Source: a virus
Reading direction: 5' to 3' (one strand)
Length of the DNA stretch: 64,000 nt
IMG/VR virus record: IMGVR_UViG_3300021957_000015
Span: 1 to 64,000 of that record
A program made the position numbers and the translations under genes. The notes under the pieces were generated by a model, which saw nothing but the letters and a program-made list of their open reading frames with translations, did not search any database and was not told the DNA's origin. Shown here piece by piece: positions 3,755 to 64,000 of this stretch; position 1 is the stretch's first letter, and each line of letters begins with the position of its first letter.

Positions 3755-4453
3755 ATGAAACACATTAAGGCTTACGAAAGTTTTATAAATGAAGGCAGAT
3801 CTAAGTATGATGGCTTAGCATCAAAATTGACTAAACTTACGTTTAAGAAATGGGTAAACACATATAAAGGTGGCAAAGCGGTTATCAATTATATGGACCA
3901 GATCGAAGAACGAGGTTTAGAATTTGACTTTGATGCAACTATTCATATAGACAAAAAATTTAAAGGCTTTGAAGTTTTACCTTCAACTGGTGCAGATGGT
4001 AGAGATGAGGACGATGATGGCGATTATCAAACTCCATACATTCTAATAGATTTTGGTATAAATCCTGATTGGATTCCAGGAGAATGGTCTACTGTATATT
4101 TTCATTTAGCAGATGTTATTAGACATGAAATGGAACACATAACACAGGATGGAGTAGACACTGGTAATTATAGAGCTGGTAAACCTATTGAAGATGATAG
4201 CGAAATAAGAAATCTAATTAACTTAGGTCTTCTACCATACTTTCATTATTTAATGTTACCCAAAGAAGTGGATGCCAATTTACAGGGACTTAGATATGAG
4301 GCTAAAAAAAGAAAAGAGCCAATGAGTGATGCAGTTAACAGATACTTAGACACTCAAATAGAAGGTGACGTAATCAGTAAACAAGAAAAAGAAGAAGTGT
4401 TGGATCTTTGGAGAAAACGCGCAGCAAAAATAGGTGGCATACCAAAATTTTAA
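3755..4453 (+). CDS. Putative virion-internal zinc metallopeptidase-like protein
   Basis: Leader MKHIKAYESFINE; HEMEH (HExxH) plus downstream EVDAN third-ligand-like motif. Confidence 0.65.
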   Translation: MKHIKAYESFINEGRSKYDGLASKLTKLTFKKWVNTYKGGKAVINYMDQIEERGLEFDFDATIHIDKKFKGFEVLPSTGADGRDEDDDGDYQTPYILIDFGINPDWIPGEWSTVYFHLADVIRHEMEHITQDGVDTGNYRAGKPIEDDSEIRNLINLGLLPYFHYLMLPKEVDANLQGLRYEAKKRKEPMSDAVNRYLDTQIEGDVISKQEKEEVLDLWRKRAAKIGGIPKF

Positions 4454-4454
4454 T

Positions 4455-5045
4455 ATGAAATACATAAACACATATGATAGTTTTTTGAATGAAGCTGCAG
4501 GTGGAAAAAAGACTGATGTTTTAAAGAAACATTTCGATAGAACAAATATGACGCTTGCAAAATGGATCAAAAAATATCTATTACCTCAGGAAAAACTTGA
4601 TTCTGAGTCTGATGCAGTTAATCTAATTACAAAGGTCAATAGTCGAAAATATTATAGTAAACTACCAACAATGTATTTCTTTGATGCACCGGCTGAAGAT
4701 CATCCATCAGATAAACTAATTGTACACTTTGTATCATCAGAAAAAATTAGACAAAATATTGTTAAACATGGCTTTATTTACGGTGAACCTGATTATCTTA
4801 AACTAGGTATGAATTGGTCTTCAAGACATAAGCCTAAAAGAGGGGTTGGATATAACTACGGCCTTGATTACGATGATATGTTAGAAAAATACGGGAGCTT
4901 AGAAAAGGGTGCAAAACATTGGGGAGCTTATCCTATTACATTTAAGTCCACTGATGCAATTAAAAATTATCACTTCGGTGACGACGTTGAACAAGTATTA
5001 TTTTGGGGACCGTCAGCGTATGATATAAAAGCAATTGAAATATGA
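4455..5045 (+). CDS. Putative virion-internal protein
   Basis: Start reassigned to ATG 4455 (MKYINTYDSFLNE), just after the upstream stop. Confidence 0.7.
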   Translation: MKYINTYDSFLNEAAGGKKTDVLKKHFDRTNMTLAKWIKKYLLPQEKLDSESDAVNLITKVNSRKYYSKLPTMYFFDAPAEDHPSDKLIVHFVSSEKIRQNIVKHGFIYGEPDYLKLGMNWSSRHKPKRGVGYNYGLDYDDMLEKYGSLEKGAKHWGAYPITFKSTDAIKNYHFGDDVEQVLFWGPSAYDIKAIEI

Positions 5046-8000
5046 AATACATAAATGAAAAGGCGCCTAGCGTAAAAAGCAAAGTTAAGGACATCAATAA
5101 AAAGATTGGTAAACTGATTTCTAAAAAAGAAGATGCTATTAGTAAAGCTAAAGAAATGGCCGATTCTGAAGAACCTTCTGGAAAAATGCAATCAAGTTTA
5201 GCAAAGATACAACTTAGGCAATCTGAAGCAGAAGCTGAAAAGTTACTAATGCAAAAGCAAGCAGAAATACTTAAAGCTAAAATAGATACTGCTAAGAAAA
5301 AAGAAAAAACAACAGCCAACATAGAAGAAATGGAAAATAGACCAATTACAGTACTAGAGGGTGTTATGTCTGATATACATCAGATGATCAGCAACCATAA
5401 AAACTTTGATTCTTTTCAAAAAGAATTCTTTAAAGAGTACGGACATAAAAAAGTAATGAAGAAAACACCAGAATTTTTAGAATGGTTAGAAGCTCTTTAT
5501 AACGACAGTCAATTTGCAGTCGCTGAAGCAGATGCAAAACCAGGACCAGATCCATACATGAGAGGTCTAGATGACGATGAGGAAGAGAAGAAAGAAGATA
5601 AAATGAAAAAGCAAGCTGAAATGGACGATGATGATCCAGATGCTTACAAAGAATTACCAGGTGACAAAGAGGCCAAAGACAAAGGTGAAGTAAAAACTTC
5701 TAAACATGTCAAAAAATATCACGAATTATATGGTGATAAAAAGGACGAATCAGTAGTTACTGAAAAACTAGCTAGAGGTTTAAAGCCATTATTAAAGACA
5801 GGTTCAACTATTACTAAAAAGGTTGGTGAAGATGCATTATTAGATTTATCTGATAAGTTTGATAGCATAGATGATGAATATGCTGGTGATATAGCAAGTC
5901 ATTTGGATATGGCTATTGAATTAATGCAGGATGGTGAAGCAGGAGCCGCTACTAAAAAATTAAAGCAATTTAACAAAGCATGTAAGGATGTTCTTAATGG
6001 AAAGGAAGTTGGTTCAGCATTTGAATCTTTTTCTCAAAAAGATTGGGATGTAAAATGGAAGATGCCTAAAGACAATTTATTCAATGCAACTAAAACTACA
6101 AATGCAATTAATAACAGGTACAACGCTATACGATCCTTACTAAAGTCGAAGCCTACAGAATTAAAAGCCTTTGATAGTACTGACGACCATCCAGCATATG
6201 ACATGTCTTATGATGAGTTAATGAAATGGTTTAAAACCCTAAAAGAATCATTAGATGAAGCAGAAAAATACGATACTAAAGGATTTAAAGTAGGAGATAA
6301 AATTAAAACTAATTTCGGTGAATGGGAAGTAATTGAAACTGATTATGCGCCTAGAAAAAGTTTTACAGCGCCTTTTATATTTAAAGGAAAAGATATGAAA
6401 AGAGTAGACATACCTAATCCTCCTAAAACTAATAAGAATGCTGTAGGTTACAAAGTAACAGACGGTGCTAAATACCCAACTATTGGTTTCTTATATCAAT
6501 ATAAAGATATTACTAAACTTGCAACGGTTGGTGTTGATGAGAAGAATGTAATGCAAGATGATCCTGAAAAATTCGTTGAATCCAAAAATCTTAAGCACAT
6601 TAATCCATTAAAATTTACAGTAAACGAAGAAAAGGCCGAAGGAGATAGAGGTAAAATATCCGATGCTAAAATAGAAACAGCACTTAAAACTAAAGCCGAA
6701 GAAACTGGAGTGCCAATTGGTTTAATAAGAATCGTAATGAGAAGAGGTATGGCCGCATGGAAAACCGGACACAGACCTGGCGCAACTGAACAACAGTGGG
6801 GATATGCACGAGTAAACGCATTCTTAACTAAAGGTGACGGCACATGGGGTGGAGCAGATAAAGATGTTGCTAAAGAAGTTAGAGATGGTGGACATGATAA
6901 AGGTCTAAAGGAAAGAATAGAATCAGATATCAGATTAAGTGATAAAGTAGTAGCATTTAAGACTGAGGCTCCAGCAGATGAAGATTCACAATCTCCTAAT
7001 TCTATTACATGTGGTAATTGTGCATGGACTTGGATGAAACAAGACGGTGGTGATGATATGTATACATGTCACAAGTGTGGAACAGAAAATGCACCTTCAC
7101 TAGGTGAATCTGTGTTAAACGAAGAAGATACTTACAATGATTATCCTGCCGCTGCTAAAAAGAATGCAAAAAAAGCACTTGACTGGCGAGACGAACATGG
7201 AAGAGAAGAAGTAGATGCTGGAACTGCAGTTGGATGGACACGTGCAAATCAATTAGCCAAGGGTGAAAAAATCTCAGCTGACACTATAAAGAGAATGGCA
7301 TCGTTTAACAGACATAGAAAGAATTCTTCAATAAAAGCTGAATTAAAAGGAACTCCATGGAAAGACAAAGGGTATGTTTCTTGGTTAATTTGGGGTGGAG
7401 ATGAAGGTGTCGATTGGGCAATGAAAAAATCAAAAGAATTAGATAATATGAAAGAGTCAAAACAAATGAAATATGTCAAGCACCTTTTTGAAGGTAAAAC
7501 ATTATCGTATGCAAAGGTTAGTATGTTAGGTTCTAAGGTCATAAATAAAATTAGTATTGGAACTATATTAGACACTAAAACTGGTCAATATGAAATTACA
7601 GATCATGGTCGACAGTCTAATGCTTTTAAAGAATTTGAAGCTGAACATAATGGCAAAATAGTAAAGGTGAAATTAACTGTAATGTATGGCATTAAACTAG
7701 AAGCGACAGATGATGTACGTAGTGCTAGATTTGATCAAGAACTAGAACTAAATTCTATTATTTTAGAATCAGCAATCACTGAAGGCATATATGCTAAAAA
7801 AAGTAAAATAACACCTGGTGAATATATTCAAACTCAATATGGTTATTTCTATAAAAGAGTTGAAGGTAAAGTAGGAGGACAAGATGCTTATGTTGAAATA
7901 AAGAAAGGTAAAGAAGGAAAGAGAAAGACAAGCATTCATGATACAGTTGATTTTGATATAGTTGATAAATCTATAGCTCTTAGCGAATCCTTAGTTAATG

Positions 8001-8764
8001 AAGGTAAAATAGTAATTACTAAAAATGAATGGCCGTATCTTGAGTTTAAAGACGGTAGTAGAAGACATAAAGTAGAATTCGACTATGAAGATATTATTGA
8101 TGATCATGGAAACGAGGGTCAAGATCAATATTGGGTAGGTAAAGATGATCAAGGTCAAGAATGGGTTATCGATGTTTATGCTGATATGCGAGGAGAAGTT
8201 GAAGAGGTACACTATGATACTCTGGTAAAAGAATCAACTAAAACACTAAAGTATATTAAACCATTAAATGAAAGTTATTGGAGTAGTTATGAATATGAAA
8301 AGTGGGTTAAAGATAATGGTAAACCTAAATATCCAAAATGGATAAAATCTACTTTAAAAGAAATTACAAATGCAGGGTTTATGGATCCAGTTTACAATTC
8401 TGAACATCAATATATGGTTGTATGGTTAAGTTCATTCGATAATAAAAAAAGATCTGAGCTATTAGCTTATGATAAAAAAGGCATTAAAGAGCTTGGTCAA
8501 ACGGGCTATGAAATGTATAAGAGATTCTACAATGATTTAACAGGTTACAATATGTTCTCTATGATGGGCGCTATATATGCTTTGGAAGTTTCTAAACATA
8601 TTGAAGATAGAGTTGCAAATGGTGAGCCGGTAGAGCCAGCATACTATATGATGAAGGAGTACTTTAACAATATGGGCATGGACACTAAAAGAAGTAGGAT
8701 TTTTAATGCAGCATATGAAAAGTTAGAAAAATGGATGAAAGAAAACAGCATTCCAACTTTATAA
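5042..8764 (+). CDS. 1240-aa multi-module putative virion-internal polyprotein
   Basis: Starts MKYINE; repeated ES-x(n)-(V/L/I)-x-E linkers separate unrelated modules, including a CxxC..CxxC zinc ribbon. Confidence 0.75.
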   Translation: MKYINEKAPSVKSKVKDINKKIGKLISKKEDAISKAKEMADSEEPSGKMQSSLAKIQLRQSEAEAEKLLMQKQAEILKAKIDTAKKKEKTTANIEEMENRPITVLEGVMSDIHQMISNHKNFDSFQKEFFKEYGHKKVMKKTPEFLEWLEALYNDSQFAVAEADAKPGPDPYMRGLDDDEEEKKEDKMKKQAEMDDDDPDAYKELPGDKEAKDKGEVKTSKHVKKYHELYGDKKDESVVTEKLARGLKPLLKTGSTITKKVGEDALLDLSDKFDSIDDEYAGDIASHLDMAIELMQDGEAGAATKKLKQFNKACKDVLNGKEVGSAFESFSQKDWDVKWKMPKDNLFNATKTTNAINNRYNAIRSLLKSKPTELKAFDSTDDHPAYDMSYDELMKWFKTLKESLDEAEKYDTKGFKVGDKIKTNFGEWEVIETDYAPRKSFTAPFIFKGKDMKRVDIPNPPKTNKNAVGYKVTDGAKYPTIGFLYQYKDITKLATVGVDEKNVMQDDPEKFVESKNLKHINPLKFTVNEEKAEGDRGKISDAKIETALKTKAEETGVPIGLIRIVMRRGMAAWKTGHRPGATEQQWGYARVNAFLTKGDGTWGGADKDVAKEVRDGGHDKGLKERIESDIRLSDKVVAFKTEAPADEDSQSPNSITCGNCAWTWMKQDGGDDMYTCHKCGTENAPSLGESVLNEEDTYNDYPAAAKKNAKKALDWRDEHGREEVDAGTAVGWTRANQLAKGEKISADTIKRMASFNRHRKNSSIKAELKGTPWKDKGYVSWLIWGGDEGVDWAMKKSKELDNMKESKQMKYVKHLFEGKTLSYAKVSMLGSKVINKISIGTILDTKTGQYEITDHGRQSNAFKEFEAEHNGKIVKVKLTVMYGIKLEATDDVRSARFDQELELNSIILESAITEGIYAKKSKITPGEYIQTQYGYFYKRVEGKVGGQDAYVEIKKGKEGKRKTSIHDTVDFDIVDKSIALSESLVNEGKIVITKNEWPYLEFKDGSRRHKVEFDYEDIIDDHGNEGQDQYWVGKDDQGQEWVIDVYADMRGEVEEVHYDTLVKESTKTLKYIKPLNESYWSSYEYEKWVKDNGKPKYPKWIKSTLKEITNAGFMDPVYNSEHQYMVVWLSSFDNKKRSELLAYDKKGIKELGQTGYEMYKRFYNDLTGYNMFSMMGAIYALEVSKHIEDRVANGEPVEPAYYMMKEYFNNMGMDTKRSRIFNAAYEKLEKWMKENSIPTL

Positions 8765-53458: not shown

Positions 53459-53827
53459 ATGAAAACATTTAATAAATACTTAGTAGAGGAAAAGATTACT
53501 GAAAACGACATGGAAGTTCTTAAAGAAAACTTACAGTCTGAGTGGACTCCTGAATTAGAATCTAAAATAGATGCAGCAATAGAGGAATTTTGTAAAACTT
53601 ACCAAAACGAAGATGGTACATATGACTTAGACAAGTTAAATGAAGAAATAACTAACGAAGGTCTTCTAGGTTCTATTATAGGTGGTTTAACTGGATTTGC
53701 TCTAGGAAAATCAGTTGGTAAATTATTAGCTAGAGTATTAGGTATTCAAAAGGGTATATTATTTGATTTATTAACCTCAAGACTTGTAGGTGCTGCATTA
53801 GGTGCTAGTCTTGGTAAAAGATTCTAA
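53459..53827 (+). CDS. Virion-internal-like protein: acidic pro-region plus a cationic glycine-zipper C-terminus
   Basis: MKTFNKYLVE leader; NE|GLLGSIIGGLTGFALG...VGAALGASLGKRF. Confidence 0.7.
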   Translation: MKTFNKYLVEEKITENDMEVLKENLQSEWTPELESKIDAAIEEFCKTYQNEDGTYDLDKLNEEITNEGLLGSIIGGLTGFALGKSVGKLLARVLGIQKGILFDLLTSRLVGAALGASLGKRF

Positions 53828-57536: not shown

Positions 57537-59045
57537 GTGGAACTTAGTTTAACAGAAAATAGACAGTTGCTTCGTATTGATGATGCAACTGAAATGGAGC
57601 TTGAACAACTTAATATCTCTCTTAACAAGAGAATTGAATCGTGGAGATTTAATCCATTAGTTAAGAAAGGATTGTGGGACGGTTACATATCATATATAAA
57701 AGATGACAAGTGGATTCCATCTGGGCTATGGAGAGAAGTCATGTCAATATGCAAAGAATACGGATATGAACTTAAATTAAATGGTATAACTGTCCTGTTT
57801 GACACTAAAATAAACCAGGAAGAGTTTACAGAGTGGGCTTTAAAGTTCTTTGAGAAATCAGAAATAACGCCCCGTGATTATCAAATAGAAGCAGCATTTA
57901 ACATTCTTAAATTTAGAAAATGTTTATCAGAGCTTGCAACCTCTGCAGGTAAAACATTGATATCATTTTTAACTGTAGCATATCAATTAGAGAAAAAGAA
58001 ATCAGAAAGAATTCTTTTTATTGTACCTAATGTTTCTCTTGTAGTACAAGCTAGTGAAGATTTCTTAGATTATAACTATAGAAACTCAGTAGATATAAAA
58101 GTACAACAAATTTATTCCGGTCAAAAAATAAGACCCGGTAGAAATGTAGTAATTGGAACATATCAATCTCTTGTTAAAAAGAATAAAGAATATTTTGAAC
58201 AATTTGATGCAGTAATAATTGACGAAACACATAAAGCTAAATCTACTTCAATTAAGACTATATTACAAAAGTGTGTAAACGCTAAATATAGATATGGTTT
58301 ATCAGGTACAATTCCAAAAGAAGGCACAATAGATAGACTTACATTAATGGCATACACTGGCCCTTTGATCACTGAGGTTTCTGCAAATTTCCTACAAAAT
58401 GAAGGACACATTGCAAAATGTAAAGTTAAAGTTATTAAAATGGATTATGCTCCTCAATCTACAAAGGACGCATTTAGAGAAATGTCACAAAACAGATATG
58501 AAAGTAAAGATGTATTCAAATTTGAACAAAACTACATTATTAATTCGGAAGGGCGTCTTAATTTTATTTCAAACATTATATCCAGAGTACGCGGTAATAG
58601 TCTTGTTCTTTTCCACAGGATTGAACATGGTAAAAAACTTTATGCAAAACTTAGGCAAGAAAGTGATAAAACAATATATTATGTTGACGGTAATACCGAT
58701 AAGGATATCAGAGAAGAATATAAAAAGAAAATGGAGGCAAACGCGAATGTAGTAATTGTTGCTTCATATGGTACGTTCTCTACTGGTATATCAATTAAAA
58801 GAATTCATAATATATTCTTCACAGAGTCCTTTAAATCTGAAGTAGTTATTAGGCAATCTATTGGGCGTGGGTTAAGGCAACACAGCTCTAAAGAAAGCGT
58901 AAACATTATAGATTTTGTTGATGATTTGTCTTCACCTGATTGGGATAATTATCTTATAAGACACGCTAAAGCTAGACAAGCCATATATAAAGAACAGAAG
59001 TTTGCATACGAAATAAAAAATGTGTCATTTGAAGGAGATATATAA
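57537..59045 (+). CDS. uvsW: SF2 DNA helicase UvsW
   Basis: WDG, PRDYQ, LATSAGKT, DETH, GLSGT, ASYGTFSTGISI, QSIGRGLR; GTG start. Confidence 0.93.
   Translation: MELSLTENRQLLRIDDATEMELEQLNISLNKRIESWRFNPLVKKGLWDGYISYIKDDKWIPSGLWREVMSICKEYGYELKLNGITVLFDTKINQEEFTEWALKFFEKSEITPRDYQIEAAFNILKFRKCLSELATSAGKTLISFLTVAYQLEKKKSERILFIVPNVSLVVQASEDFLDYNYRNSVDIKVQQIYSGQKIRPGRNVVIGTYQSLVKKNKEYFEQFDAVIIDETHKAKSTSIKTILQKCVNAKYRYGLSGTIPKEGTIDRLTLMAYTGPLITEVSANFLQNEGHIAKCKVKVIKMDYAPQSTKDAFREMSQNRYESKDVFKFEQNYIINSEGRLNFISNIISRVRGNSLVLFHRIEHGKKLYAKLRQESDKTIYYVDGNTDKDIREEYKKKMEANANVVIVASYGTFSTGISIKRIHNIFFTESFKSEVVIRQSIGRGLRQHSSKESVNIIDFVDDLSSPDWDNYLIRHAKARQAIYKEQKFAYEIKNVSFEGDI
59037..59044 (+). promoter_or_regulatory. 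Putative late promoter GATATATA
   Basis: At the uvsW stop, upstream of ATG 59080. Confidence 0.65.
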
Positions 59046-59079: not shown

Positions 59080-60909
59080 ATGGATAAATTAAAAAACTTC
59101 GAGCAATTTGCTAAGGTAAAAACCGAACGTGATGCCGCTCAATTAAAAGAAGAGCAAGATTCTAAAAGATCAGCAGAAGCTAATACCTTCAAATCTCTTT
59201 TATCAGAATTCAATGTCACTTCTATTAAAGAATTATCAGAAGATCAAAAATCTGAATTTTTTACTAAACTAAGAGGTGTTGAGGTTTCTGAATCCTTTTT
59301 AATTATAGAAGGAACTAGAGGACAGTTTGGTAAAATAGACAAAAAAGGTAACATAGAATCAGTGTATACACATTACGACTCATATCCTGATAACATGCTA
59401 CCACTTATCAAGAAAACATATTTAAAAGGTGGTTCACCTCTAAATATGGTTCTTAAAAATGGAGATAATTCAGGTTTAGAAGCTGATCCAAGAGGAATGA
59501 ACTACTACGGAGACTCCGATAATATGAAAGGTAACGTTAAAAACATTGACAGATACATTTCAACAGCAGGCGATAAAGGTGGTGCAGAATTCATTTACCT
59601 TTTTGATGAAAAATCAGGAAAGTGGTTAATGGCAGACATATATGCAGGTGATAAAGATTTAAAACCAGCATTTGAATCTGTAGAAATTAATGAAGCTATT
59701 AAAGTAGAAGGTAAGAGAGATGCTAAGAAAGTAGTAACTCAGTATAATCAAATTTTGTTTTCTAAATTAAATGCAATCGGTGCATCTAACGATAAGAAGA
59801 CTTTATTGGGTGCAATTAAAAAATTATTCTTAGATTCAATGGAAGATGCTAATTTCCATAGAGAAAGAGAAAAGTGTGCAGGCGCTATCAAAGGTAATAT
59901 AGGATCTATTCCAGTAATAGTTGATGGTTTAGGCAAAATGTCAGTAAACATTGGATCAACAAGAATTAAAGATGCGTTAGAAAAAGAATATTCTAGAATT
60001 TCAAATGCAGCTGGATGGTCAGGTCAAGGTATTGCAGAAGGAACTGCATTATTCTTAGAGCAGTGTGGCTTTGCTAAAATGGGACAAGATTTACTAGATA
60101 GGTTTAACTCTTTCTTTGAAGGTGAAGTAAAAGACAACTTTGAATTTAGAATGTTTGAAACTATTAAATATGCAGAAAGTGTATTAGAAGCTACTGTAGT
60201 TATGGATGCAACAGATCCTGGATCTAAAGTATTAAAAAAATTACTTAAGAAACACAAAGTTACAATGGAGATCATCGATAACGAAGGTCCAACAGGTTTC
60301 CCAGAAGTTGAATTAACGGGTTCAAGAGAAGATCTACAATCAGTGTTAGGCTCTGACGATGGTTGGGGTGATCCTGAATTAGGGGAATACATTGAAGAAT
60401 CTAACGAAACCTTTAAGATTAAAGTTAAAGCTTTAAATGAAGCTAAATTTGTAAAAGATTTTAATAAAGATGTTTTAGGTGCTGAAACTAAAGAAGATAT
60501 AAAATCTTATTATCCATCAGCTAAATTCTTTATTGGTAAATTGACACACTTCTTTGGAGAACTAGAACCTAACCTATTCTTTAAAGCTTACTATGCTAGA
60601 TACTACAAAGAAGATACGGGCAAGAAAATTAAAGGTGACTTTAAAATTACTTCAATCTACTCTGAAAAGGGTAGTAATTATGTTCACTTACACAATGAAT
60701 CTGCTAAAACAGTAGAAGCTCCAAAAGTAAACGAAGCAGAAGTTACTTCAGACGAAGAATTTAAAGAGTATGCATTTTCAGTATTAAAGAAAGCATTCGG
60801 AGATGAATTTGACGAAGATAAGGCAGGTGAAGTTGTAGACGGATTAATTTCTAAAAACTCAGGAGATTACGGTGCTATGGTTGGTGCCTTAAAATCATCA
60901 CTAGGGTAA
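59080..60909 (+). CDS. 609-aa multi-module putative virion-internal polyprotein
   Basis: MDKLKNFEQF leader; five ES...(I/L/V)-x-E linkers. Confidence 0.72.
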   Translation: MDKLKNFEQFAKVKTERDAAQLKEEQDSKRSAEANTFKSLLSEFNVTSIKELSEDQKSEFFTKLRGVEVSESFLIIEGTRGQFGKIDKKGNIESVYTHYDSYPDNMLPLIKKTYLKGGSPLNMVLKNGDNSGLEADPRGMNYYGDSDNMKGNVKNIDRYISTAGDKGGAEFIYLFDEKSGKWLMADIYAGDKDLKPAFESVEINEAIKVEGKRDAKKVVTQYNQILFSKLNAIGASNDKKTLLGAIKKLFLDSMEDANFHREREKCAGAIKGNIGSIPVIVDGLGKMSVNIGSTRIKDALEKEYSRISNAAGWSGQGIAEGTALFLEQCGFAKMGQDLLDRFNSFFEGEVKDNFEFRMFETIKYAESVLEATVVMDATDPGSKVLKKLLKKHKVTMEIIDNEGPTGFPEVELTGSREDLQSVLGSDDGWGDPELGEYIEESNETFKIKVKALNEAKFVKDFNKDVLGAETKEDIKSYYPSAKFFIGKLTHFFGELEPNLFFKAYYARYYKEDTGKKIKGDFKITSIYSEKGSNYVHLHNESAKTVEAPKVNEAEVTSDEEFKEYAFSVLKKAFGDEFDEDKAGEVVDGLISKNSGDYGAMVGALKSSLG

Positions 60910-60920
60910 AAACAATATAT

Positions 60921-60951
60921 AAACTAGAGAGCATAACACTCTCTAGTTTTT
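60921..60951 (+). terminator. Terminator-like hairpin
   Basis: Perfect 11-bp stem AAACTAGAGAG/CTCTCTAGTTT, 7-nt loop, T-rich 3' side. Confidence 0.7.
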
Positions 60952-60964
60952 ACTTTCAACTACT

Positions 60965-62236
60965 ATGAAAATATATACAGACTTTAGTACATTTATAACT
61001 GAAAGGGTTCATTTACAAGAATCTAATTTAATATTAGAAGGTGGAGCAGCCGGCCACATGTCACACCCGTTTGATAACAAGTCATTGACATTCGGCGATT
61101 TTAAAAAGCTTATAGAATCTGGATTAAGTGGAGAACTTAATTTTGAAGAAGATCCTACTGAAAAAACAGATGGCCAAAATTTATTTGCAACTGTTAAAGA
61201 TGGAGAAACAATGTTTGCCAGAAATAAGGGTCAAATGAAAAATCCAATAGACCTAAACGGTATTATTAAGATGTTTACTGGTCACGCTTCTAAATTAGTA
61301 GAAGAAACATATATTTTTGCAGCAAAAGATTTAGCTGACGCTTTACCAAAACTTAAGGATCAATCAATGTTTGCAAACGGATTAAATTTCGTTAACATGG
61401 AATTGATCTACTCTAAAAATCCCAACGTGATATATTATGATAGAGATGTTATTCAATTTCACAATATAACAGAAACAGACGGAGAAGGTAATCAAACAGG
61501 AACTCAAAATTTAGCAACAGAATTAGTAGGTGCTTTAAAAGAATTAAAGAAAGATGTTCAAAACACATTTACTATAATTCCACCACAAGTATTAAAGATT
61601 GCTAAAGACGTTGACTTTGAAGCAAACAAGTCAAAATTCATTAAACAAGTAGAAGCATTAAAGAATCGTTATAAATTAACAGATGCTGACGAAGTTTCCA
61701 GATATCATGAAATGTGGTGGAGAGAAACGATAGACACAAATTTCCCTGATCTAGAACAAAACCATAAAGAAGGTTTATTATTAAGATGGGCATATGGCGA
61801 TAAGAAAACTTTAAACTTAAGATCATTAGACAAAGCTATCGGTAAAGACAAAGCTGCACTAATTAAGAAGTTTGATAAAGAAGATGTTAAAAAGAAGTAT
61901 AAAGAAAACATTAGACCATTTGAAGATCTATTCTTAGAATTAGGATCAGTAATCTTGAAAAACGCAAGTAACTTTGTAGCTGCATCGCCAGATAAAGAAA
62001 TGCAAAGACTACATAATCAAATTAGAACTGAAGCTGCTAAGATTAAAAAATCAGGTGGAATTGATCAGATTAAAAAAGTTGAAGCTGAACTTGCTAGACT
62101 AGAAAGAATCGGTGGAATAGAGTCTATTATACCAACTGAAGGTTTAGTTTTTAAATATAAGGGACATACTTATAAACTAACTGGAACTTTTGCTGCAATT
62201 AATCAATTAATGGGAATTATTAAATACGGTAGATAA
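60965..62236 (+). CDS. ATP-dependent ligase-fold (RNA-ligase-like) nucleotidyltransferase with a targeting-like leader
   Basis: TEKTDGQN (KxDG, motif I), NMELI (III), EGLVFK (IV), YKLTG (V); leader MKIYTDFSTFITE...LILE|GGAAGHMSHPFD. Confidence 0.7.
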   Translation: MKIYTDFSTFITERVHLQESNLILEGGAAGHMSHPFDNKSLTFGDFKKLIESGLSGELNFEEDPTEKTDGQNLFATVKDGETMFARNKGQMKNPIDLNGIIKMFTGHASKLVEETYIFAAKDLADALPKLKDQSMFANGLNFVNMELIYSKNPNVIYYDRDVIQFHNITETDGEGNQTGTQNLATELVGALKELKKDVQNTFTIIPPQVLKIAKDVDFEANKSKFIKQVEALKNRYKLTDADEVSRYHEMWWRETIDTNFPDLEQNHKEGLLLRWAYGDKKTLNLRSLDKAIGKDKAALIKKFDKEDVKKKYKENIRPFEDLFLELGSVILKNASNFVAASPDKEMQRLHNQIRTEAAKIKKSGGIDQIKKVEAELARLERIGGIESIIPTEGLVFKYKGHTYKLTGTFAAINQLMGIIKYGR

Positions 62237-62238
62237 CA

Positions 62239-64000
62239 ATGGCATTACAGAACTTAAAAACATATTTTGAATCAACTAATATCAATGACTTTAAAAAGTT
62301 ACTAGATAATATTTGCGTCGTAACCGAAAAGGTACAAGCTTCAAGTTTTCATGTTAGAAGAGATGAGATTGACGTTTTTGAATTTTTTAAAAGCGGTTCA
62401 AAAACACCTATTAATAAAGTAGACAGAACGTTAGTAAAATATTATGAAAACGGAATTAAACACTTTAACACAATATCAGATGTTATTCTAAATGAAATGC
62501 CAAAGGATTGGAAATTCGGGTTTGATTACATGTTAGAAACCAAAACTGTAGATATAGAATATGACAATGTTCCTAAAAACAATCTTATATTAACACATAT
62601 ACAGGTTTTAAATCCTTCAGATCCCTCTAAAGTAAAAAAAGTAATTAGAGATCCTAGAATTTTAGAAAAATGGGCTGGTTTATTAGATGTACAGCCAATA
62701 TCTGTACTTTTTCAAGGTCAATTGGCATCTAATCAGAAAGATGACTTAATATCATTATTATCACTGGGCACTGAAGAATTTAAAAAGAAATTTAAAAACC
62801 AATCTTTTACAAGAACTATTTATCACATATTCGATAACGGTAGAAATAAGTCAGCATTAAACTTGGATTTAGATAAAGACATTGATGCGCTAGTTATTAA
62901 TTTTTATGAAGATAGGACACCTAAAAGTTTTAAGCTAGAAAGATTCGATAGAGAATCTGCACCAAATAGAAAATCATCAGACATGTATCAAATATCGATA
63001 CTAGATTTAGTTGAATTCTTAACTTCATTTGATTTATCAGATATAAAATTAAAAGAAGAAAAGGCGGATTTAAGATATGTAGAACTAATTTCATCTATAT
63101 TTAATGCGTATGTTGAAAAGCATGCTACAAAATATGTAGGCGCTGATTTTGATTCAGCTGATTTTGCAGAAGGAGAATCATTTGAACTTAATACAGCATT
63201 TATGTCAAATGAAAAAACAATATCACTTGTACAAAATAAAGTACTAGCTGAATTGTTCAAAATAGCATTAGGATCTTTTAGAAAAAAGAGAACTAAAGAA
63301 ACAGATATCATTAACGCAGATTTATTATCTCAAATTAATGAAATAGTTGAAGAAATAGATACTATTGTAATGGGTAAAACAAATGAAAAAGATGTAATGG
63401 ATTTTAAAAAATATCTAATTAATCAAAAACTAAATGGAGATGTAAGTCCAATAATGGAAGGATTAACTGTAAATTATCCAGATCAAGGTAAAAAGCCAGT
63501 CAATATGTTTGTCGGTAGATTTCAACCGTTCACATTAGGACATGCTAAAGTAATAGACACTATCAGCAAACAAAATGGACACCCTGTTGTTGTAATATTG
63601 ATTAAATCAAAGACTAAGAAAAAAGAAGATGCGTTTAAAAGACCATACGACGAGGAAACTCAATTAGCAATGCTTAATAAATTAAAGTCTAAATACCCAA
63701 TAGAAAAAGTATACATTTTAGATAGAGCTGCAATAGATTACATGTTTAACGCAATGCGAGCAGATGGTTACGAACCAGTGCTTTGGGGAACAGGAACAGA
63801 TAGACTTAAAACATATTCGTATCAAGTTGATAAACCAGAATATAGAGAATCTTTAAATTGTAGAGAAGATTTCGGTTTATTTGAAATCCCTAGATCTGGT
63901 AAAAACATTTCAGCAACACAGGTTAGAAATGCAATGTTAGACGGTGATGAAAAAACATTTAAAAAATTAACACCTAGACCAATTCATGGTATGTATACTG
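62239..64000 (+). CDS. Fusion protein, 3'-truncated: degenerate ligase-like N-terminus plus an HxGH-type (NMNAT/cytidylyltransferase-like) nucleotidyltransferase
   Basis: Not in the ORF track because it has no stop in the window. MALQNLKTYFES...VTEKVQASSF...; from about 63500 MFVGRFQPFTLGHAKV...GTGTDR...ISATQVRNAM. Confidence 0.8.
   Translation, partial: MALQNLKTYFESTNINDFKKLLDNICVVTEKVQASSFHVRRDEIDVFEFFKSGSKTPINKVDRTLVKYYENGIKHFNTISDVILNEMPKDWKFGFDYMLETKTVDIEYDNVPKNNLILTHIQVLNPSDPSKVKKVIRDPRILEKWAGLLDVQPISVLFQGQLASNQKDDLISLLSLGTEEFKKKFKNQSFTRTIYHIFDNGRNKSALNLDLDKDIDALVINFYEDRTPKSFKLERFDRESAPNRKSSDMYQISILDLVEFLTSFDLSDIKLKEEKADLRYVELISSIFNAYVEKHATKYVGADFDSADFAEGESFELNTAFMSNEKTISLVQNKVLAELFKIALGSFRKKRTKETDIINADLLSQINEIVEEIDTIVMGKTNEKDVMDFKKYLINQKLNGDVSPIMEGLTVNYPDQGKKPVNMFVGRFQPFTLGHAKVIDTISKQNGHPVVVILIKSKTKKKEDAFKRPYDEETQLAMLNKLKSKYPIEKVYILDRAAIDYMFNAMRADGYEPVLWGTGTDRLKTYSYQVDKPEYRESLNCREDFGLFEIPRSGKNISATQVRNAMLDGDEKTFKKLTPRPIHGMYT

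Follow-up and report, generated by a model that had tools for sequence, protein, structure and literature searches.

A candidate capsid-cargo polyprotein with prohead-protease-like joints in a T4-related, probably giant phage

Introduction

Is the 609-amino-acid (aa) open reading frame (ORF) at positions 59080..60909 of the window (64,000 nucleotides (nt) of viral DNA, positions 1 to 64,000 of IMG/VR record IMGVR_UViG_3300021957_000015) a single multidomain protein, or a chain of small proteins that a protease would separate? A reading of the sequence alone had divided it into about six modules joined by five glutamate-ending linkers, and had proposed that a cut at the first linker recreates the native N-terminus of a widespread, small stand-alone phage family, which was taken as independent support for a polyprotein. 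The interpretation favoured here, with moderate confidence, is that the protein is a capsid-loaded cargo polyprotein of a T4-related giant phage, cut into small proteins by the prohead protease; the cutting, packaging and injection, as well as the functions of the modules, are steps that we infer.

According to the proposed mechanism, six small, independently folding modules would be translated as one chain, and the N-terminal module, which is constant, would probably mediate its entry into the prohead. A T4-type serine protease of the prohead (gp21 family, Peptidase_S77) would cut after Glu at each joint of the form [I/L/V]-x-E↓[A/G], where the arrow marks the predicted cut. The freed proteins (6-18 kDa) would remain in the capsid and pass into the host together with the DNA, as is the case for the internal proteins of T4 and for Alt. 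Cutting at joint 1 would free module 2, a member of the family PHROG 1987, with a chain starting G-T-R, the same start that stand-alone members would reach after removal of Met.

Module architecture

The protein and its modules were delimited as follows.

59080..60909, + strand: candidate cargo polyprotein of six modules; single open frame, 609 aa, 67.9 kDa, pI 5.2
59080..59310, + strand: module 1, aa 1-77, helical (helices 7-43 and 54-66; secondary structure from the AlphaFold2 model)
59311..59694, + strand: module 2, aa 78-205, PHROG 1987 member (fold aa 78-197, last 8 residues linker)
59695..60189, + strand: module 3, aa 206-370, mostly helical in the predicted structure
60190..60441, + strand: module 4, aa 371-454, small acidic alpha/beta, pI 4.6; weak PHROG 5922 match
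60442..60735, + strand: module 5, aa 455-552, alpha/beta, pI 9.0
60736..60906, + strand: module 6, aa 553-609, acidic three-helix, pI 4.2; the module with the highest conservation and the widest reuse

The joints between them are given with the long segments in which the predicted local distance difference test (pLDDT) score of the whole-protein AlphaFold2 model was below 50.

59299..59313, + strand: joint 1, LIIE↓G (P4-P1'), predicted cut after aa 77 (nt 59310); pLDDT <50 at aa 68-76
59683..59697, + strand: joint 2, EINE↓A, predicted cut after aa 205 (nt 59694); pLDDT <50 at aa 200-205
60178..60192, + strand: joint 3, SVLE↓A, predicted cut after aa 370 (nt 60189); pLDDT <50 at aa 348-374
60430..60444, + strand: joint 4, ALNE↓A, predicted cut after aa 454 (nt 60441); pLDDT <50 at aa 452-461
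60724..60738, + strand: joint 5, KVNE↓A, predicted cut after aa 552 (nt 60735); pLDDT <50 at aa 529-550

All five linkers quoted in the sequence-only reading were found where it had placed them, and its count of about six modules agreed with the six folded blocks of the AlphaFold2 model (29 relatives, pLDDT 71), the borders of BLAST matches to relatives being clustered at the same five joints. The model had a beads-on-a-string form and a predicted template modelling score (pTM) of 0.32, so that the domains have no fixed mutual arrangement, and each of the five predicted cuts lay inside, or at most 2 residues from, a disordered spacer between folded blocks. Domain borders thus matched the linkers in the BLAST borders, in the pLDDT dips and in the module changes among relatives described below.

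Full-length relatives of the ORF were present in 42 IMG/VR loci. Module 1 was N-terminal in all relatives except one ORF call, with 14/15 of the distinct matches listed starting within residues 1-5; because of this constant N-terminal place, we infer that it is a candidate head-targeting propeptide. Module 3, which was preceded by x-x-E↓A/S in 12/13 listed relatives, had no Pfam or PHROG match, and searches for its stand-alone forms gave only polyprotein fragments. Module 6 was found in tandem duplicate in 209-aa relatives. Comparison of the modules with Pfam and PHROG gave no Pfam family above cut-off and no annotated PHROG, a search of the whole-protein model against the PDB gave no match, and neither an embedded peptidase nor a known conflict domain was detected by sequence and fold searches, very distant relatives being beyond their reach.

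Sequence pattern of the joints

The five joints share the form [I/L/V]-x-E↓[A/G], and all of the sites (IIE↓G, INE↓A, VLE↓A, LNE↓A and VNE↓A) fit a rule of the L/I-x-E type, the cutting rule of gp21, the T4 prohead protease, being L/I-X-E↓ (PMC9026906). Glu-Ser was present 4-15 residues upstream in 4/5 joints; at the joint at aa 552 the regular expression matched EA at 546, and ES is found at 540. The extended pattern E[SA]-x(0-4)-[ILVM]-x-E-[AGSKE] occurred in 4 copies in the 609-aa ORF, compared with 0.34 expected from shuffles. Among the other long ORFs of the 79-kb contig that holds the window, only two were enriched in it to a comparable extent, namely 5042-8764 (1240 aa, in the window; 5 copies vs 0.58) and 64121-65944 (607 aa, in the contig; 3 vs 0.27), while every tail, baseplate or replication protein of the contig had at most one copy. 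The 607-aa ORF also contains module 4, and its similarity to the 609-aa ORF covers module 4/5 sequence (aa 383-501, E 1e-9).

Such a pattern could in principle arise by chance, or the long frame could be an assembly artefact in which sequencing errors had fused small genes carrying a short recurring motif. The core motif has only three residues, and Glu, Ile, Leu and Asn are common in a genome with 32% guanine and cytosine (GC). However, the same uninterrupted ORF was found in 42 independent metagenome contigs, the extended motif was about 10-fold over shuffles and confined to three ORFs, and the five sites all coincided with predicted inter-domain spacers; this explanation is considered effectively refuted.

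The joints were the points where relatives insert, delete, duplicate and swap modules. Two relatives (L002 and L006) had an extra module of ~60 aa at joint 2, flanked by two copies of ESVVNE, and a 571-aa orthologue (L011) was without module 5, exactly from joint 4 to joint 5. Modules 2 to 6 were each preceded in relatives by the same site, whatever lay upstream, and before module 6 the residues were always V/I/L-[TN]-E↓A/G (~30 relatives). No module starts with Met, and their separation would therefore be possible by proteolysis only. No DNA word of at least 14 bases was common to the five joints of the 609-aa gene, which places the constraint on the joints at the protein level; a pure DNA-repeat origin of the joints was rejected for this gene on the same ground.

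Module exchange exactly at the joints would also be in agreement with an uncleaved multidomain protein of the 'polyvalent' style, in which the joints would be flexible connectors kept for recombination and shuffling, or for structure. Multidomain phage proteins that are delivered whole are known, e.g. the N4 virion RNA polymerase (PMC5512222), and an identical 18-base word for ESVVTE occurred once in the 1240-aa ORF and twice in the 607-aa ORF, the two other polyprotein genes of the contig. Nevertheless, the joints of the 609-aa gene keep their protein pattern with no such common word, and a connector would leave unexplained the invariant Glu at P1 with I/L/V at P3 and a free P2, the presence of the same site at the end of short leaders of single-module proteins, and the finding of extended forms only in genomes with an S77 protease (all described below). 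An uncleaved protein is therefore regarded as rather unlikely.

N-terminal register of module 2

In order to locate the N-terminal edge of module 2, residues 78-205 (the translation of 59311..59694) were searched alone, which yielded 186 cluster representatives (phmmer, E up to 0.001, 1.84 billion representatives). Residues 78-188 matched PHROG 1987 (E 2.7e-8, profile positions 2-118 of 128); the family M(G/S/A)TR...YxHxDGYP, which the earlier reading had named, is thus the one to which the module belongs, the motif given there being accurate, and the opening GTRGQFG and the later AEFIYLFD were present as quoted, YTHYDSYP standing further on from the opening. Stand-alone homologues (104-150 aa), which were the more distant matches, began at the aligned TR, as had been anticipated: their alignments started from their own residue 2-3, and their sequences open with M-[S/A/G]-T-R followed by YCHWDGYP-like motifs. 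Closer matches were long proteins in which the module occupied any place from residue 76 to 636, aligned from its first or second residue. The invariant columns of PHROG 1987 (T2, D23, G51 and Y96) and the nearly invariant ones (Y19, H21, Y66 and W105) were all present in the module of the window. Module 2 therefore shares with the stand-alone proteins the same invariant Thr, Tyr, His, Asp and later Tyr, in a profile match from position 2, yet it lies inside a chain of 609 residues, after a joint that ends in Glu, rather than at an initiator Met, and has DSYP where they have DGYP.

The N-terminal edge was placed with the family hidden Markov model in 146 PHROG 1987 members, 37 of them stand-alone and 109 extended. 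The 37 stand-alone representatives start directly with Met (M-[S/A/G]-T). Neither of the two outcomes that the sequence-only reading had named as telling against it was observed: domain borders agreed with the linkers, and any homologue reaching upstream of the aligned G/T had [ILVM]-x-E immediately before [G/A/S]-T (109/109), irrespective of the upstream sequence; P1 was Glu in all 109, P3 was I in 68, L in 30, V in 10 and M in 1, and P2 was free. In a scan of IMG/VR, 81/81 stand-alone loci began with ATG at the aligned Met (M-[A/G/S]-T), and no plausible upstream extension was found at these loci.

Among 95 extended members (mean pairwise identity 46%), only 8/122 columns were at least 98% identical, and the P1 Glu was one of these 8 although it is not part of the fold and stand-alone members lack it. 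Three residue types were found at P3 (I/L/V), eleven at P2 and 12-16 at P5-P8. Given the fixed P1 Glu, the restricted P3 and the variable P2 and P5-P8, the conservation of joint 1 is that of a putative protease-site footprint, not of a spacer. In T4, Glu-to-Asp changes at P1 prevent processing. Since Ser, Ala or Gly after the initiator Met permits removal of the Met, as stated for SPN3US (PMC10052503), the predicted cut and the stand-alone route would both give an x-Thr-Arg start. Judged from these alignments, the residue-exact coincidence of the predicted cut after Glu77 (leaving G-T-R) with the stand-alone start is real and exact, and because of it the N-terminal Thr-Arg of PHROG 1987 is likely a functional site.

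The AlphaFold2 model of module 2 alone (43 homologues) reached a pLDDT of 94.1, with 68 in the last block, and the last eight residues, belonging to the next joint, were of low confidence. Strand 1 runs from residue 4, and the invariant Thr is the second residue of the predicted mature chain. As strands 1 and 2 form a hairpin in the secondary structure, Thr2 and Arg3 should adjoin the His-x-Asp that follows strand 2. Fold matches in BFVD were to uncharacterised proteins only (Campylobacter phage PC5, Cronobacter phage GAP32, Roseobacter phage RDJL Phi 2 and Yersinia phage fHe-Yen9-04), matches in the ESM Atlas were confined to viral clusters with no name, and no Pfam family, no PDB sequence relative and no Foldseek PDB match was found for the module. 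A fold like Brix or the class-II tRNA-synthetase anticodon-binding domain was rejected, the best VIA-align Z of 4.1 being too weak.

Protease, head genes and leaders of related phages

Peptidase_S77 (above the Pfam cut-off) and a gp23-like capsid protein were present in 4/4 larger contigs with orthologues of the 609-aa ORF, whose modules were up to 97% identical, as well as in 4/4 contigs with a leader-type single module. In the complete genomes with the stand-alone form, Peptidase_S77 and the gp23-like capsid gene were absent (0/5). Within the window's own 79-kb contig (~29% complete) Peptidase_S77 gave no match, and the protease of the window's phage is accordingly deduced from its relatives.

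In a T4-like marine relative (G007, contig L074), a 379-aa protein ending in module 2 is encoded directly after the protease and before the scaffold and capsid genes. In the same contig (L074:6656-13116), about ten small ORFs with MK(L/I)xxxL..E leaders are packed between the portal, protease, scaffold and capsid genes, and this region is a putative expanded internal-protein locus within the head cluster. The capsid protein of a close relative had three copies of the site in its first 26 residues. In this close relative (G001; L045:1429-3342 and L048:2-1141), Peptidase_S77 and a scaffold-like region, which is acidic, rich in repeats and very long, are fused within one 831-aa frame, whereas gp21 and gp22 of T4 are separate genes.

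Single-module relatives had short leaders ending in the site, e.g. MIKLTELLKEDVINE↓G and, in front of module 4, MKNLKLLGYFE↓A (L028). Module 4 was also found behind the Glu-ending N-terminal leader MTETKQTLNE↓A (P0162), and it was with this leader, ending in LNE↓A, that the comparison with a native N-terminus could be repeated beyond module 2, only in a weaker form. The leaders of single-module proteins resemble, in sequence, the T4 capsid-targeting sequence MKTYQEFIAE↓ (PMC8442874), and neighbouring ORFs of the contig start with residues near to that tag (MKKFEEFIGE↓G at 64121 and MKTFNKYLVE at 53459). Small ORFs with leaders of the type MK(H/Y)(I/L)xx(Y/F)(E/D)xF(I/L)NE were observed at 3755, 4455, 9392 and 53459 of the window and at 65977 of the contig; these are candidates for single-module head cargo.

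Genomic setting and flanking signals

The IMG/VR virus record that holds the window is 79,169 bases long (32% GC), with a completeness of 29% according to CheckV, on the basis of which the source, an uncultured marine phage, is probably a giant one of roughly 270 kb. Its genes include tail and baseplate genes and a replication block. Distant cultured kin were Sphingomonas phage PAU, Tenacibaculum phages PTm1/PTm5/pT24, the Chryseobacterium MA9V phages and the Lak megaphages; no close cultured relative was found among 50,697 GenBank phage records by tblastn with the whole protein or by megablast with 10 kb.

The 609-aa ORF is located between a helicase gene upstream and an RNA-ligase-like gene downstream, and the following signals flank it.

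59037..59044, + strand: promoter-like motif GATATATA, 43 nt upstream of the ATG; it overlaps the stop codon of the preceding helicase gene
60921..60949, + strand: terminator-like hairpin and subsequent T run, immediately downstream of the 609-aa ORF's stop codon
Window 3743, 8774, 15096, 15142, 23348, 24697, 32018, 38514, 46577, 53447, 54592 and 59037, and contig 75718, + strand: copies of GATATATA

All 13 copies of GATATATA in the 79-kb contig were on the + strand, and 11/13 stood 12-73 nt before an ORF start, the genes that follow being baseplate, fibre and cargo-like genes, the SSB block and RNR. The motif was kept 26-48 nt upstream of the gene in 31/33 related loci, in some of them within a spacer rather than within the helicase gene, and it probably represents a promoter element of the phage. 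Three ORFs, at 491, 67546 and 68004, have another upstream element in common, TTTTTTATGTC..TTATTTGTGGTATATTAG, which was observed at ~440-490 of the window and at ~67500-67545 and ~67960-68003 of the contig; it looks like a different promoter class, possibly early.

The RNA-ligase-like protein (window 60965-62236) has a KxDG motif and an N-terminal leader ending ESNLILE↓GG, on account of which this nucleotidyltransferase may be head cargo too. Its relatives by tblastn were found in Microcystis phage Mel-JY01 and Lak phages, and in 2/3 of them the alignment starts at about residue 20-28, which is consistent with a removable leader, although not conclusive. The next ORF (62239-63999) runs off the window; its N-terminal part is degenerate ligase-like, and its C-terminal part is an HxGH nucleotidyltransferase (NMNAT-like).

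Discussion

Several observations weigh against the interpretation of the 609-aa protein as a cleaved capsid cargo. The core L/I-x-E motif is short and, taken alone, frequent by chance. The predicted products are mostly acidic (pI 4.2-5.2 for 4/6 modules), unlike the basic T4 internal proteins, and the protein's own N-terminus, MDKLKNFEQF, is only loosely like the T4 tag. The gene is located in the replication block, away from head genes, and head genes (protease, portal and capsid) were not found in the 79-kb contig, which is ~29% complete. Moreover, GATATATA also precedes the SSB block and the RNR gene, and is therefore no proof of late expression. The co-occurrence of Peptidase_S77 with extended forms (8/8, vs 0/5 for stand-alone forms) comes from few independent lineages. 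Lastly, in the domain tree all extended forms lie on the same side of one branch, for which one state change suffices.

With a single change required by the tree, a repeated independent origin of the N-terminal extension was rejected, and what the tree points to is a feature strongly conserved while sequences diverged and modules were shuffled, rather than one invented repeatedly; a single acquisition of the leader or joint, in an ancestor of a T4-related clade, may have been followed by its retention. The earlier argument that the same free N-terminus provides independent support for a polyprotein stands, consequently, only in part: the register is exact, but the extended forms belong to one clade, which makes the support less independent, and the cleavage itself is deduced from the sites.

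Some of these points would fit a true polyprotein that is cut in the cytoplasm, either by the same protease outside the head or by another Glu-specific protease, and whose products would act in the producing infection instead of being injected. The position of the gene in the replication block, near helicase, RNA-ligase-like and NMNAT-like genes, the promoter motif common to non-structural genes, and the acidic modules, which differ from T4 internal proteins, are all in line with this possibility. On the other hand, T4 internal proteins are themselves encoded at a distance from the head genes, the leaders are similar to the T4 capsid-targeting sequence, and the module is encoded within the head gene cluster of the T4-like relative described above. 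In addition, the activity of prohead proteases of the T4 family is known only from within the assembled prohead (PMC9026906). Cytoplasmic cutting is thus considered quite improbable, and cutting inside the prohead is preferred.

If the joints are cut, tailed phages would load their capsids with many small proteins by a polyprotein strategy. This would reveal, in marine giant phages, a large set of proteins that are candidate effectors of the first minute (anti-defence or takeover), would provide a simple sequence rule to find such effectors in metagenomes, and would account for the fast reshuffling of payloads. For the engineering of T4 capsid delivery, natural multi-module substrates would indicate the cargo load per tag. 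A broader proposal, put forward tentatively and with less than even confidence, is that a plug-in payload system of a general kind exists in T4-related phages, giant marine ones among them, in which any small protein placed behind an [I/L/V]-x-E↓ joint would become injected cargo, polyproteins would be reshuffled at the joints, and the head protease would release a ready-made set delivered with the DNA; PHROG 1987 would require an exact free N-terminus (x-Thr-Arg), hence the residue-exact cut.

Relation to known systems

No description of cargo polyproteins cut in trans by the prohead protease was found in the literature consulted on T4, on phiKZ/SPN3US or on polyvalent proteins, yet each of these systems shows partial likeness to the one proposed here. 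The internal proteins of T4 (IPI, IPII and IPIII), together with Alt (PMC9026906; PMC8442874), have an N-terminal leader that ends in hydrophobic-x-Glu and is cut by the Peptidase_S77 prohead protease; their cargo is unrelated to head structure, highly variable among relatives and thought to be delivered with the DNA, and the 10-residue leaders of the neighbouring ORFs nearly match MKTYQEFIAE. Nevertheless, the T4 internal proteins are basic single modules with one cut behind a 10-residue tag, whereas the 609-aa chain starts with a conserved 77-residue helical module, has five predicted sites and would give six different, mostly acidic proteins.

The giant phages phiKZ, 201phi2-1 and SPN3US (protease gp175/gp245; PMC10052503, PMC5694885) cut many head proteins after Glu, some of them multiply, and eject cargo into the host. 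In these phages, which belong to a different lineage and use the motif A/S/G-x-E rather than I/L/V-x-E, the multiple cuts break down long propeptides at the N-terminus, a single mature protein being left, while several products are predicted from the 609-aa chain; their literature contains no case of one chain giving several unrelated folded products.

Polyvalent proteins (Iyer et al. 2017, PMC5512222) likewise combine many unrelated small domains in one phage polypeptide, with mosaic architectures and predicted delivery with the DNA. The 609-aa protein is in agreement with their description as 2-15 unrelated domains in a mosaic architecture, having six modules and relatives with many orders and combinations. 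The difference lies in the content and in the way of release: polyvalent proteins carry known conflict domains and are released by embedded peptidases (zincin-like MPTase and others), neither of which was detected in the 609-aa ORF, for which release in trans is proposed.

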